This document shows positions 14,501 through 44,203 of a stretch of 64,000 nucleotides of DNA, piece by piece. The notes under the pieces are model-generated. The model was not told the origin of the DNA, searched no databases, and worked only from the letters and a program-made list of their open reading frames with translations. Within the stretch, counting starts at the first letter, position 1. The number at the start of each line of letters is the position of its first letter. A program made the position numbers and the translations under genes. The stretch lies in contig CP147778.1 in NCBI GenBank assembly GCA_037305845.1, positions 1,792,001-1,856,000 of the forward strand, in the 5' to 3' direction. The DNA is from Candidatus Freyarchaeum deiterrae. GTDB lineage: Archaea > Asgardarchaeota > Jordiarchaeia > Jordiarchaeales > Jordiarchaeaceae.

Positions 14501-14613
14501 CGGCTGGATCACCTCCTTCGAAGAAAACGGGCTTATAGTTAGTCCAGCTTGTGCGTATATGGGTTTTTGGGCTTTCTTTTGTTCTATTGTTTTTTTCTTT
14601 AATGGGTTTGTTT
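14501..14613 (+). repeat. R1: native 16S 3' end plus processing strand and trailer (source of the direct repeats)
   Basis: Re-occurs at 41337-41446, 42687-42791 and 44139-44203. Confidence 0.9.
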
Positions 14614-14739
14614 TTTCTGTCTGTAATTTTTTCCGTGTTTGTCCTCTTGTTCTCGAAATTTTCACTCGAATTTTTTAATAAGTGCAAATCACAACATCAA
14701 AACAAAAAAGGGAAAAAGAAGTTTTAAACCTCGTCGTTT

Positions 14740-16182
14740 CTAGGTTCCACGCCTAGACCGCAAGAAGACAATAGTGCCTAACACTACCACAGCGGCTAAG
14801 AGACCACCGCCTATTAAAAGCGGCAAGCTAAGTCCAGTACCAGACTGACCAAGCACCATAGCCAGAAGAGGCAGAGGTGAAATACTGGCAGAAGAAAGGT
14901 TTCCAACTCGGAAGTAAACACCTAAGCCACTACCATCCTGACCCAAGCTCTCCCAAGCTACCACGAAGGACCCATTCTCAAGGCATTGAACTGAAGGATA
15001 CTCTTGACGGTCATTGATGTATTCGTTCACATGAACCTCGTCGGTAAAACTTTGCCCCATTGAGTTGAAGACCCTACAGTAAATACCGTCGTTAGCTTCA
15101 CCATAACCTTCCTGAAGCCAACTACTCCATACAACGATGTAGCCTGAATTATTAGAGAAACAGCATACAGAAGGCATCCTCTGATGGGCCGAGGTGTAGG
15201 TATTCACTTGAATATCGCCAGTCAGGGCATTACCCGCAGAGTTGAATAACCTAGTGTAAACCCCTTCGGCACTTCCGTCAGGGCTCTCCCAAGCCATAAC
15301 GAAGGCTCCATTAGAGAAACAATAGACAGTAGCATGATTTTGAGAGTACTCTATGTTAACAGGTGCGAGAATATCATTGGTCTGATTATTTCCCGAAGAG
15401 TCGAAAATTTTAAAGTAAACATCCCACCAGTTATAGACATCCTGATTATCCCACACTACAACAAAGGATTCATTACCGACACAGCAGACATTCGCATTTT
15501 CTTGTTCGAAGGCGGTTTCAGTGTTCACCTGTATGTCATCGGTTAGATTGTTGCCCGTAGAGTCAAAAACCTTGATATAAACACTGTCATCATCTATCTG
15601 ACCAGCACCTTCCCAAGCTACAACGAACCCATCGTTATCGAAACAGTATACAGAAGCAAAATTTTGCCTGTTTGCGGTGTAGCCATTCACCCGAACGTCA
15701 TCGGTAGTGTTGTCACCGGCAGAGTTGAAAAGCTTAAAATAAACGTCGGCGTTACCAGTTTGATTGCTGTCCCATGCTACAACGAAGGAGCCATTAGAAC
15801 GAGTGGACAAAGAGGGATTTGCCTGATTATTTGAGGTGTTACCGTTCACTCTTATATCTTCAGTCAAGTTATTACCTGTGGAGTCAAAAATTTTGAAGTA
15901 AACATCCAAGTCTCCAGTCTGATTGCTATGCCAAGCGATTACGAAGGAACCGTCGGAACGACTGCGGAGAGAAAGACTCGCTTGGTCATTTGTGGTGTTA
16001 GTGTTTACACGAGTTTCGTTCCCCCATACCACAATCAAACCCTTAGAAGTCGACTGCTGAACAGTAATTGTATGAGTTAATGACCACATTGGTGTCGGAG
16101 TGTTTTTCACTGTTAGTGCCACCGTGGTTAGACTCAGAGTGAGAGCCACCAGAATTAGAGCAAAAACCGTTTTTTTCTTAAT
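14740..16182 (-). CDS. Membrane-anchored surface glycoprotein with seven ~52-aa repeats (probable 7-bladed beta-propeller)
   Basis: Seven (G/E)xFVVxW...VYxxxFxSxGxxxTxDIxVN units, C-terminal TM followed by RSRRGT. The track start is GTG 16149; an in-frame ATT at 16182 after GAGGAGG gives a complete signal peptide. Confidence 0.75.
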   Translation of the reverse strand: MKKKTVFALILVALTLSLTTVALTVKNTPTPMWSLTHTITVQQSTSKGLIVVWGNETRVNTNTTNDQASLSLRSRSDGSFVIAWHSNQTGDLDVYFKIFDSTGNNLTEDIRVNGNTSNNQANPSLSTRSNGSFVVAWDSNQTGNADVYFKLFNSAGDNTTDDVRVNGYTANRQNFASVYCFDNDGFVVAWEGAGQIDDDSVYIKVFDSTGNNLTDDIQVNTETAFEQENANVCCVGNESFVVVWDNQDVYNWWDVYFKIFDSSGNNQTNDILAPVNIEYSQNHATVYCFSNGAFVMAWESPDGSAEGVYTRLFNSAGNALTGDIQVNTYTSAHQRMPSVCCFSNNSGYIVVWSSWLQEGYGEANDGIYCRVFNSMGQSFTDEVHVNEYINDRQEYPSVQCLENGSFVVAWESLGQDGSGLGVYFRVGNLSSASISPLPLLAMVLGQSGTGLSLPLLIGGGLLAAVVVLGTIVFLRSRRGT

Positions 16183-16827
16183 CCGTATTCCTCCTCATAC
16201 TTGTGAACTCATTATCTTAAATTATCACAACTCCTCTCTTCACGAAAATTACACTAACCTATCTCAATCTCAGAATTGTTTTAGTATAAAAATTTAATGC
16301 AAGCATCATATACTGCTTTAACACTATTTCATAAAAACCTCCCACCAACAATAGAATAAAACATGAATTTCAATAATCGGAGACTTTCACCCATTTTTCT
16401 AACAGGAGAATCTATCCCCCAAAATATGTAATTTTTTTACACATTTTTACATATTTTTTGCAAACGATAGTTAAACAACGGATAACCCGCCTCCTTATAC
16501 TAAAAGAAAAAAATCTCATAAAACTCTAAAATGGAAACCAAAGATAAAAACGAGATAAATGGAAAAAAACAGCAAAAAACGGAAAAAAATAATGAAAAAA
16601 AGGCTTTAAAAACCTCCAAATCAAACAAAAACCCCCCAAAAAAACAAGCATACGCCTTTATAAAGGAAAACGCCACCAGAAAACCACTTGGATGCGGCGC
16701 AAAAATCACCTCAATAGACTTTCTCACGAAATAACAAAAATCAATACATAAAATTGTTAAAACAGCGCCGCATCACCAAACAAACAACCAATATGAGAAT
16801 CAAAAAAATGGAGGGAGGCGAACCCTT

Positions 16828-17430
16828 TTGCTCAGCACCATGAAAATGGCGGAAAGATGGGCAGCAGCCACCATAGCACTGCTCGCGGTAAGCATCATCA
16901 CGCTGGCCTACCACTCCACAAAGGTATACTGGTACACCAGCCTAACACTAGCACTGACGCTGGGGCCCACGCCCACGGGAATCCTCAGTCTCGCAGTCCT
17001 TAGCGCCTACCCGGCGGAATTCAGCATAGGGGTAAACGCAGGCATCTTCGCGGGATTCTGGTACAAACTCTTACTGGACCTAGCCTACCTGGCACCCGTA
17101 GGAGTAGCCCTCTTCACAAGCCTAGTCGTCACCCTGTGCTACTCCCTGAGAGAGTTCCCAGGCTGCGAAACAGCCGACGGCATAGTAAAGAGAATAAACC
17201 AGATAATAACTCTGGGCGAAGAACGAGACCAGATGGAAGCAACCCTAGCCCTGATCGTGATACCCTGCATACTAATGAGCATCCAAACCTACGTCTACGC
17301 TCTAACACCGGTAACAAACCCCCTAAACCCCCTAATCCTAGTCATAATCCTCGCACTAAACCTGCTGACCACGTACAATTTCGGCACAAGCATAGGACGC
17401 ATCATACAACGTGAAGAAGTAATACGCTAA
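16828..17430 (+). CDS. Hypothetical multi-pass membrane protein
   Basis: 200 aa with about 6 hydrophobic segments, GGAGG SD upstream, and a C/A-rich codon style like the 5' end of the giant gene. Confidence 0.7.
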   Translation: MLSTMKMAERWAAATIALLAVSIITLAYHSTKVYWYTSLTLALTLGPTPTGILSLAVLSAYPAEFSIGVNAGIFAGFWYKLLLDLAYLAPVGVALFTSLVVTLCYSLREFPGCETADGIVKRINQIITLGEERDQMEATLALIVIPCILMSIQTYVYALTPVTNPLNPLILVIILALNLLTTYNFGTSIGRIIQREEVIR

Positions 17431-42686: not shown

Positions 42687-42791
42687 TCACCTCCTTCGAG
42701 CAAAACGGGCTTATAGTTAGTCCAGCTTGTGCGTATATGGGTTTTTGGGCTTTCTTTTGTTCTATTGTTTTTTTCTTTAATGGGTTTGTTT
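42687..42791 (+). repeat. R3: 105-bp copy of 14509-14613 with 2 mismatches
   Basis: TCACCTCCTTCGA-GC-AAAACGGGCTTATAGTTAGTCCAGCTTGTGCGTATATGGGTTTTTGGGCTTTCTTTTGTTCTATTG...AATGGGTTTGTTT. Confidence 0.95.
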
Positions 42792-43031
42792 GTGTGGTCT
42801 GTTGCAGTGTTTGTCTTTGAGCTTTCTTTTATTCTCTTTCTATAATCTTTTTTTAAGTCTCAGTGCGCACCTTAAAGTGATCTAAATTATTCCCAACAAA
42901 TTCTCCAAGTGTTACTTAGCCTCATCTCTACAATTCATCTAATTCTTTTAAAAAATACAAAAGAGAGAATTCTTTAAAAAAATTGAGCGGGAAGCAAAAT
43001 TTTTATACTATGTGAAATAAATTTAGAAAGC

Positions 43032-43994
43032 ATGATGAAAGTTCCGGCGAGAAAGGGAGCGGTAAAAGTAATATTATTGGCAGTGGTTCTCCTCACAGCA
43101 ACAATCACGTTTCTCTCAATCCAAAACCAAAATACGTGTCCTCTCGTCAATGCATACCTGCAAGACATCTTCCCAGGTTCTCCCACCATCATTCAAGAAA
43201 AGACTATTAACATATCTTCTGACTACACGTTTAATGGAGACTTCTATGAAACGATAAATGTGGCTGCGGACAACATAGTGATAGACGGGAACGGATACAC
43301 TGTGCAAGGCAATGGATCTGGTTACGGCTTCTACTTAGGTGGCAGAAGCAACGTGACCATCAAGAATGCCATAGTCAAAGGGTGGCAATGCGGCTTCTGC
43401 TTAGAATATAGCTCGTACAATACTCTTTCGGATAACACCGCAATCAATAACACTAATTATGGCTTCAATCTGTACCATAGCTCGTACAATACTCTTTCGG
43501 GTAACACCGCAAACAACAACGGCTGGGGCGGCGGCTGGGGCGGCTTCCATTTGGATAGTTACAGTTCGTACAACAATCTTTCGGGCAACACAGCCACAAA
43601 CAACCCCCAAGGCTTCGAACTGTACTATTACTCGGACCACAACAATCTTTTGAGTAATACCGCTTCATACAACGGCTGGGGCTTCTACCTAGACAGTAGC
43701 TCTTACAACACTCTTAGGGGTAACACCATCATAATCATCTACTCTGGCAACGACATCCGCCAAAACCTAGGCTCACACGACAACATTCTTATGGGTAATA
43801 CAGTCATTTCCACCTCCTTACCTTTTTCATTATATAGCTTGTTTTACTCTTATCAGGCGGCGCAATCTACTTCAAATATGAATAGTGAATTTTTATTGGC
43901 GATAGTTCTTGTCGTATGCTTAGCGTTTGTCTATAAGATGATGAAGAGTGCCGCCAAGGCCAGGAGCAAGCCCGGAGCCAAACCCAAACGATGA
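43032..43994 (+). CDS. Membrane-anchored right-handed beta-helix (NosD/CASH-type) surface protein
   Basis: Signal peptide, IxIDGNGYT, repeated GFxLxxSSYNTLSGNTAxNN units, C-terminal TM with a basic tail. Confidence 0.85.
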   Translation: MMKVPARKGAVKVILLAVVLLTATITFLSIQNQNTCPLVNAYLQDIFPGSPTIIQEKTINISSDYTFNGDFYETINVAADNIVIDGNGYTVQGNGSGYGFYLGGRSNVTIKNAIVKGWQCGFCLEYSSYNTLSDNTAINNTNYGFNLYHSSYNTLSGNTANNNGWGGGWGGFHLDSYSSYNNLSGNTATNNPQGFELYYYSDHNNLLSNTASYNGWGFYLDSSSYNTLRGNTIIIIYSGNDIRQNLGSHDNILMGNTVISTSLPFSLYSLFYSYQAAQSTSNMNSEFLLAIVLVVCLAFVYKMMKSAAKARSKPGAKPKR

Positions 43995-44138
43995 AAGTCA
44001 CTATCCTAGTGGCTCGTCTCACTGATTCTAGAGTTGAACTTAATATGTATACGCTCATTTTTTACTCATCATTTAGGATACTGCTGAAGATACCTTTGAT
44101 CTTATAATCCATATTGTACATTTTTTCTGTTTTAAATT

Positions 44139-44203
44139 CGGCTGGATCACCTCCTTCGAAAAAAATGGCTTATAGTAAGTCCAGCTTGTGCGTAAATGGG
44201 TTT
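44139..44203 (+). repeat. R4: copy of the 16S 3' end (22 bp identical) plus processing strand, followed by the spacer leading to 23S
   Basis: CGGCTGGATCACCTCCTTCGAA-AAAAAT-GGCTTATAGTAAGTCCAGCTTGTGCGTAAATGGGTTT. Confidence 0.92.

Follow-up and report, generated by a model that had tools for sequence, protein, structure and literature searches.

A 30-kb gene array between the 16S and 23S rRNA genes of Candidatus Freyarchaeum deiterrae is bounded by copies of the 16S 3′ end

We analyzed a 64,000-nt stretch of the genome of the Asgard archaeon Candidatus Freyarchaeum deiterrae (GenBank assembly GCA_037305845.1, contig CP147778.1, positions 1,792,001 to 1,856,000; hereafter the window, to which coordinates refer unless noted). 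The genome, which we call G000, is complete as one contig of 3,576,204 bp. Within the window, the 16S ribosomal RNA (rRNA) gene (12896-14517, + strand; Rfam RF01959, 1495 bits) and the 23S rRNA gene (44803-47888, + strand; Rfam match, with its own processing stem) are each the only copy recovered by whole-genome search. From the 16S end at 14517 to the 23S start at 44803, they lie 30,285 bp apart. The interval is filled by an array of gene blocks separated by truncated copies of the 16S 3′ end, with the 16S gene as the proposed homology anchor. Such 16S-tail arrays are real and recur in Asgard lineages.

Copies of the 16S 3′ end and the processing stem

The earlier note on this DNA described four same-strand copies of the 16S tail. 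All four (R1 to R4) are present on the + strand, and the genome-wide search that it called for returned no fifth copy elsewhere in G000. Each copy consists of the 16S 3′ end followed by the 3′ arm of the bulge-helix-bulge processing stem. R1 (14501-14613) is the functional 16S 3′ end with its trailer, including this arm. R3 (42687-42791) begins 9 nt before the 16S end and is 98% identical to R1; in self-comparison it matches R1 positions 14509-14613 at 103 of 105 nt (E 2e-46), and the last 90 bases common to the two are identical. R4 (44139-44203) begins 17 nt before the 16S end and matches R1 at 92% over 66 nt.

R2 (41337-41446) is a decayed copy, comprising the last ~69 nt of the 16S and then the processing-arm block. 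BLAST aligns it to R1 at ~85% over ~50 nt, and comparison with an insert-less 16S tail extends it back to ~41337. Its 16S part carries ~17 differences in ~70 nt, whereas the 16S portions of R4 (17 nt) and R3 (9 nt) are intact (R2 versus R4, Fisher p 0.035). Next to this decayed part, the 24-nt arm block of R2 is intact (24/24, for a block picked post hoc), and the arm block is likewise conserved in a decayed copy of genome G002. A metagenome scan with the 24-nt block found nothing, and no terminal inverted repeats were found at the block ends. The helix-45 loop of the resident 16S contains a 32-nt insert (14465-14496, + strand) that is missing from R2 and also from the congener G004. This insert, which splits the helix-45 GGAA loop, is one of two short inserts in the 16S, the other lying at ~13166-13255; the 16S of G130 has an insert at roughly the same spot in helix 45.

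Judged by its divergence, R2 is an old decayed relic, far older than R3 and R4, and the blocks are not the three equivalent successive cassettes that had been proposed. If units had been added one by one beside the 16S, R2 should be the youngest copy; its decay means that accretion was not simply polar. A 28.2-kb composite, extending from R1 to R3 at its right end and enclosing R2 as an old scar, is probably the youngest unit; alternatively, gene conversion between R1 and R3 may account for their similarity.

The 5′ arm of the 16S processing stem lies in the leader (12834-12878, + strand) and pairs with the conserved core of R1-R4. Duplex folding of the leader with R1, R3 or R4 gave in each case a 4-bp helix between two 3-nt bulges, the 3-4-3 bulge-helix-bulge of leader and trailer by which an archaeal pre-16S stem is recognized, and none of 200 shuffles was as stable. 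R2 retains only part of this pairing. In the distal helix, R4 forms 6/6 Watson-Crick pairs with the leader, while R1 and R3 have one wobble and one mismatch. Because of this better pairing, R4 is probably the original trailer, which evolved with the leader and was then displaced, and R1 and R3 probably arrived later, R1 being derived from a donor. As the repeat core is itself the 3′ arm of the stem, each insertion leaves the 16S processable.

One contig in the Logan assemblies, SRR29366191_654164 (L189), runs from the end of the orphan-gene block into R3, with the diagnostic bases of R3, and then into sequence downstream of R1, joining 42494-42791 to 14509-16619. The search for a circle junction, advised in the earlier note, thus produced a candidate: this join would arise if the 28.2-kb unit were excised as a circle or duplicated head to tail. 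An assembly-graph artifact is just as possible: R1 and R3 end in the same 90 bases, and the assemblies of other samples break at this point. The R1/R3 repeat exceeds the assembler word length.

The same properties bear on whether the array itself is a misassembly, with strain variants or a free 28.2-kb circle joined at R1/R3. Short-read contigs break at the shared 90 bases, and the contig above runs from the end of the orphan-gene block into the gene of the 469-aa protein that follows R1. However, the genome was curated by hand from short reads, with its overall topology checked against PacBio and Nanopore assemblies (PMC11291895), and a follow-up paper, which does not mention the rRNA, reported that reads cover it evenly and that no integrated element is discernible (PMC11529989). 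R2 and R4 are too diverged to fool an assembler, and G021, G040 and G041, which are also complete, have the same layout. Independent Logan assemblies contain 41073-42791 (HEAT gene, R2, orphan gene, R3) at 100% and reproduce 14584-16619 (R1 trailer to the 469-aa protein gene). We regard a misassembly as very improbable.

Cargo of the array

The open reading frames (ORFs) in the array are those listed in the earlier note: genes for a surface protein, a membrane protein, a giant, a HEAT protein, an orphan and a beta-helix protein. Scans of the array with Pfam, NCBIfam and PHROGs found no integrase, transposase, reverse transcriptase or viral hallmark, in keeping with that note. The first gene (14740-16149, − strand) encodes a 469-aa repeat protein, called a propeller in that note, with a C-terminal hydrophobic anchor; from its sequence it is likely a surface protein. 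Its nearest relatives are found in Freyarchaeota and Lokiarchaeia, followed by bacterial repeat proteins.

The giant-gene block (16421-39953, + strand) comprises a non-coding leader, a gene for a 200-aa hydrophobic membrane protein (16828-17430, + strand; no family match) and the gene for a 7241-aa giant (18228-39953, + strand). Its G+C content is 0.47, against 0.407 genome-wide. A paralog of the block lies at 2,697,097-2,721,299 of the genome with 75-85% DNA identity, and these two are the most G+C-rich regions of G000. The paralog has no 16S repeat, so the giant block is not specific to the 16S locus. The 200-aa protein is 87% identical to its counterpart there. The giant has DUF2341 and immunoglobulin-like matches mid-protein and a variable C-terminal part: the two giants share 82-92% identity over most of the middle, ~20% over residues 5770-7090 and a conserved stretch of the last ~110 residues. 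An AlphaFold2 prediction of the last 999 residues had a mean predicted local distance difference test score of 37 and was unusable.

We made several further observations on these blocks. The paralogous block encodes a giant of 7416 aa behind the same membrane gene, and beside it lies an ORF cluster that, judged by eye, resembles type III CRISPR-Cas genes. The gap between the membrane and giant genes contains a stable hairpin (17581-17662, ~-39 kcal/mol) in a region kept in the paralogous block, and the non-coding sequence 16421-16810 has 69-86% similar copies at four other sites in G000.

Convergent on the giant gene is the gene for a 388-aa PBS-lyase HEAT-repeat protein (40071-41237, − strand). 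Giant ends with the conserved last ~110 residues, often followed by a HEAT gene, as at 36954-41237, occur many times in congeners. Such pairs are numerous in G001 (contig C204), G002 (C74, C230 and C269) and others, mostly away from the 16S, and their resemblance to polymorphic toxin and immunity pairs may serve as a lead.

The block between R2 and R3 carries a single orphan ORF of 157 aa, or 150 aa from the ATG (41819-42292, − strand), in a region of G+C 0.35. It has no homologs among 5.8 billion proteins and only weak structural look-alikes, of RNase H-like or actin-like type. Homolog and structure searches gave no support for reading it as a remnant of a PD-(D/E)XK nuclease. Between R3 and R4 lies the gene for a 320-aa NosD/beta-helix protein with terminal hydrophobic segments (43032-43994, + strand), which has 17 further paralogs in G000; the protein is not on record in the other assemblies searched. 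The HEAT and beta-helix genes thus belong to expanded families (17-18 paralogs), and the genes for the 469-aa repeat protein and the orphan are single-copy. The earlier note described the array as a reservoir of cell-surface genes; the cargo in G000 is indeed biased toward the surface, but that of other lineages includes toxin-antitoxin, HEPN, SIR2-NTPase and nuclease genes.

Tail copies in other Asgard genomes and the origin of the arrays

To survey the distribution of the arrays, we searched 400 Asgard genomes with the final 13-mer of the 16S and then inspected candidates. The inspected genomes were partly picked for having two 13-mer matches, and the counts given here are not frequencies. 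Tail or trailer copies downstream of the native 16S, bounding differing cargo, were found in 15 more Asgard genomes: G013, G021 (taken as Atabeyarchaeia-1), G023, G037, G040 and G041 (taken as H. aukensis and H. endolithica), G043, G056, G057, G058, G060, G065, G106, G115 and G139. Copies also occur on contigs without a 16S body in G002, G337 and G338; contig C269 of G002 reads giant-gene end, HEAT gene and then a decayed 16S tail. No copies were seen in G004, three sister-family genomes, two genomes taken as Odinarchaeia, Atabeyarchaeia-2, or the five f9 and two f27 genomes examined. In G192, G194, G195, G213 and G153, the second exact 13-mer match lies in other sequence and is due to chance; that in G146 reflects two whole 16S genes rather than a tail copy.

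Comparison among relatives shows that the content behind the 16S varies. A HEPN module that is 95% identical between G013 and G037 lies at a different distance from the 16S in each, and G056 and G057 have the first 6.3 kb in common and then diverge ahead of the same repeat. The 38-kb giant block of G041 (contig C1, ~2,207,400-2,245,500), which is the published HeimV2 element, ends in a 95-bp, 97%-identical 16S-trailer copy ~8 bp past the giant stop codon, with a further trailer copy 2.8 kb beyond. The congener G004 has a 2.7-kb 16S-23S gap without copies. With cargo differing among these relatives and no integrase in cis, the proposal of repeated additive insertion at the 16S 3′ end is supported.

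We considered whether the copies could instead be of local origin, made by short tandem duplications at the 16S end, with cargo moved in later by unrelated events. The paralogs of the HEAT and beta-helix genes, the second giant block without a 16S repeat, and the giant-end and HEAT pairs of G001 and G002 that mostly lie elsewhere all fit a mobile cargo of this kind. Yet the blocks are not copies of one another, their paralogs are only ~50% identical, and two of the genes are single-copy. Modules are common to different species in different order, and copies abut cargo ends, as at the giant stop codon in H. endolithica. These points make a purely local origin improbable.

Counted from the 16S end, the left ends of the copies fall anywhere between ~-129 and +87, most often at -13 to -17. 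They vary within genomes, falling at -69, -9 and -17 in G000, at -129, -16 and +73 in G013, and at -43, -36 and 0 in G337. No array contains a PF00589 (tyrosine recombinase) gene, and PF00589 has no match in the whole of G013, G037, G040 (a complete genome), G043, G065 or G337. The earlier note had advised searching the genome for tyrosine recombinases; G000 does encode one, but it lies 1.64 Mb away, and a small serine recombinase is also distant. Integron attC core ends (RYYYAAC, GTTRRRY) occur on neither strand of R1-R4 in a simple pattern test, which is not a covariance model, and R1-R3 contain no dif-like palindrome.

These data bear on a site-specific recombinase acting in trans, for which the 16S tail and arm would serve as attachment site, as tRNA 3′ ends do, and left ends would have eroded later. 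Several features are in keeping with such an enzyme: the target gene is regenerated as in tRNA islands, the left ends cluster near -13 to -17, the arm block is conserved in the decayed copies R2 and G002, and the Logan contig has the R3-left/R1-right junction expected of an excised circle. Against it stand the lack of an integrase in every array and of PF00589 in the six array-bearing genomes, copies that start far to the left (-69, -129) or wholly within the trailer, the missing attC core and dif-like palindrome in R1-R3, and the 90-bp identical stretch, which would let RadA or an assembler yield the same junction. We consider this explanation doubtful, and a tyrosine-type enzyme, for which the earlier note advised a search, finds no support in the ragged left ends or in those six genomes, one of them complete.

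A homing endonuclease, free-standing or intron-encoded, offers another route: once it had cleaved the 16S close to the 3′ end, the break would be repaired with an allele that has a new tail plus cargo, and the old tail would be displaced. In G021, G040 and G065, free-standing genes for double-motif LAGLIDADG proteins come immediately after tail or trailer copies. In G021, an endonuclease gene lies between the new 3′ end and the displaced one; so does one in G065, where the copy is trailer-only. Wu et al., in the passages concerned, proposed endonuclease co-option for the HeimM2 element at its 16S site (PMC8813620), and fungal precedents exist in Allomyces atp6 and Ophiostoma rps3 (PMC4019555). 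The mode of the left ends also matches a short-intron site in G013, G056, G058 and G065, although this coincidence is weak evidence, as intron sites are dense in the region and the genomes are related. On the other hand, neither the window nor G000 has such a gene, LAGLIDADG_3 has no match in G000, and most arrays lack the gene. The closest relatives of the G040 and G065 enzymes (47-50% identity) reside in mid-16S introns, ~600 nt upstream, so that their target is probably not the 16S 3′ end. On balance a homing endonuclease seems unlikely as the full account; it can, however, be a trigger within the model that we favor below.

Two side observations concern these enzymes. A LAGLIDADG protein search over all GTDB genomes gave matches at two Asgard loci only. 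The genes at L094:275-886 and L081:9497-10117 are 47-50% identical to the mid-16S intron enzymes (L130, L132 and L133), which belong to another Asgard family, and from this relationship intron-less or collaborative homing is possible.

The model that we favor, with moderate confidence, is additive gene capture with the 16S as its one-sided homology anchor. It builds on the observed anatomy, the identity of the repeat cores, the ragged ends, the absence of an integrase and the variable cargo. Incoming DNA from a relative would carry the 16S, its trailer and the DNA behind the trailer. On the left, RadA-type homologous recombination would engage the highly conserved resident 16S; on the right, a non-homologous joint would form with resident DNA broken within the 16S 3′ end or immediately after it. 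The 16S would thereby be rebuilt with the donor tail and processing arm, the cargo would come next, and the old tail would be stranded downstream as a truncated direct repeat. Later, ordinary recombination among the copies could excise, re-insert and swap blocks, including composites such as R1-R3. The insertion would be tolerated, as the 16S processing stem stays complete and the 23S seemingly has its own promoter. We infer the direction of displacement, the donor origin, the enzymes involved and the source of the break. The absence of the resident helix-45 insert from R2 counts in favor of the model, and one-sided homology-assisted (illegitimate) integration is documented in competent bacteria (PMC2884548).

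Several points weigh against the one-sided anchor. Seven copies in one family start at -13 to -16 with unrelated upstream sequence; such clustering suggests a favored site of cutting or crossover, which joining by homology alone would leave unexplained. The intact arm block of R2 may mean that it is under selection or is recognized by a protein. The usual outcome of homology-facilitated illegitimate recombination is replacement or deletion of recipient DNA, not duplication of the end of the anchor. No pre-insertion allele of the same species is among the genomes compared, and published read mapping of G000, with its even coverage, discerned no integrated element (PMC11529989). We also entertain, as a speculative and unlikely extension, a dedicated and as yet unrecognized Asgard activity that cuts and joins at the 16S end and arm as its attachment site; blocks such as the 28.2-kb R1-R3 giant-gene unit would leave as circles and pass between cells, and such transfer would be the main route by which 16S and 23S became unlinked.

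Unlinking of the rRNA genes and comparison with known systems

In most Asgard archaea, 16S and 23S are unlinked; how often and by what route this came about matters for the ancestry of eukaryotes, in which the rRNA genes are linked (PMC8997704). The 16S-23S gap measures 0.16-0.18 kb in G011, G022, G016 and G312, 0.9 kb in G031, 2.7 kb in G004, 3.8 kb in G021, 5.5 kb in G039, ~11 kb in G043 and 30.3 kb in G000, and in G006 the two genes are on different large contigs. G000 therefore represents an intermediate state, with strand and order kept, the genes 30 kb apart and the insertion scars still legible. The suggested route to unlinked rRNA genes is physically plausible, in that cargo accreted between 16S and 23S. 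Because the gaps of G004 and G039 widened without tail copies, accretion is one demonstrable contributor to unlinking and not its proven cause.

R4 is followed by a spacer to the 23S, as the earlier note said, but not by a plain one: a promoter-like motif with B recognition element and TATA box (44580-44618, + strand), conserved in the congeners G001 and G004 by sequence comparison, sits 200 nt ahead of the 23S. The predicted promoter would make insertions between 16S and 23S tolerable, and a separate 23S promoter seems to precede unlinking. At the flanks of the rRNA genes, we noted a multi-intron tRNA gene upstream of the 16S (12120-12290; CAU anticodon) that neither ARAGORN nor Rfam detected, and ~320 nt of non-coding sequence behind the 23S (48024-48342), ~80% conserved in four congeners and without an Rfam match. 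The latter is a candidate for an unrecognized structured RNA, for example a divergent 5S.

The arrays make a single-copy, essential rRNA gene a site of gene capture without an integrase. They also explain a practical nuisance, in that orphan 16S tails break assemblies and mimic extra rRNA copies. In the literature that we searched, which covered few subscription papers, duplication of the 16S tail is nowhere described as marking an integration site.

The closest published elements are HeimM2 and HeimV2, which, in the relevant passages of Wu et al., also place variable cargo directly behind the sole 16S, HeimV2 with giant genes (PMC8813620). We found a 16S-tail copy 6.6 kb downstream in G040 and trailer copies at 38.0 and 40.8 kb in G041, and HeimM2 and HeimV2 very probably belong to the same phenomenon as the Freyarchaeum array, which reinterprets the ends of these two elements. 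Those passages credit a homing endonuclease or tRNA integration and do not mention a duplicated 16S tail; they put the elements between the 16S and tRNA-Arg, whereas the Freyarchaeum array lies between 16S and 23S. Aloposons, as described there, have tandem Otus/Ephialtes giants, an upstream MinD/ParA gene set and a tRNA integration site. The Freyarchaeum array differs in having one giant, which shows no similarity to the HeimV2 giants, no MinD/ParA ORF and no tRNA at its ends.

Integron arrays and clusters of attC sites lacking integron-integrases (CALINs), which are enriched in Asgard archaea, likewise separate accessory modules by related repeats and need no integrase in cis (PMC9668308). 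The term integron-like used in the earlier note nevertheless does not apply, since the array has no attC core and no IntI, its cargo lies in both orientations with its own upstream regions, its blocks reach 27 kb and its repeats are host rRNA. The O-chain island beside the rRNA operon of SAR11 offers a parallel in that rRNA genes are proposed as conserved recombination targets near variable surface genes (PMC4033161); it is a two-sided swap that leaves no rRNA fragments, whereas the Freyarchaeum array is additive and splits 16S from 23S. Fungal mitochondrial endonuclease ORFs (Allomyces atp6, Ophiostoma rps3; PMC4019555) also supply a new 3′ end and displace the old one without an integrase. 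In contrast to them, most blocks here are nuclease-free, block sizes go up to 27-38 kb and the target gene encodes a non-coding RNA.

Tandem islands at the ends of tRNA and transfer-messenger RNA (tmRNA) genes, and other additive islands, regenerate their target, leave its displaced 3′ fragment as a direct repeat and form tandem blocks (PMC4033161). The same holds here, where R2-R4 repeat the 16S end and the 16S itself is intact. The differences are that the target is the 16S end with its processing arm, that no integrase or transposase flanks the blocks, that the left ends are spread, although with a cluster at -13 to -17, and that the ages of the copies are non-polar. The Freyarchaeum array is not an integron; apart from the integrase, it works like the tandem islands at tRNA ends.

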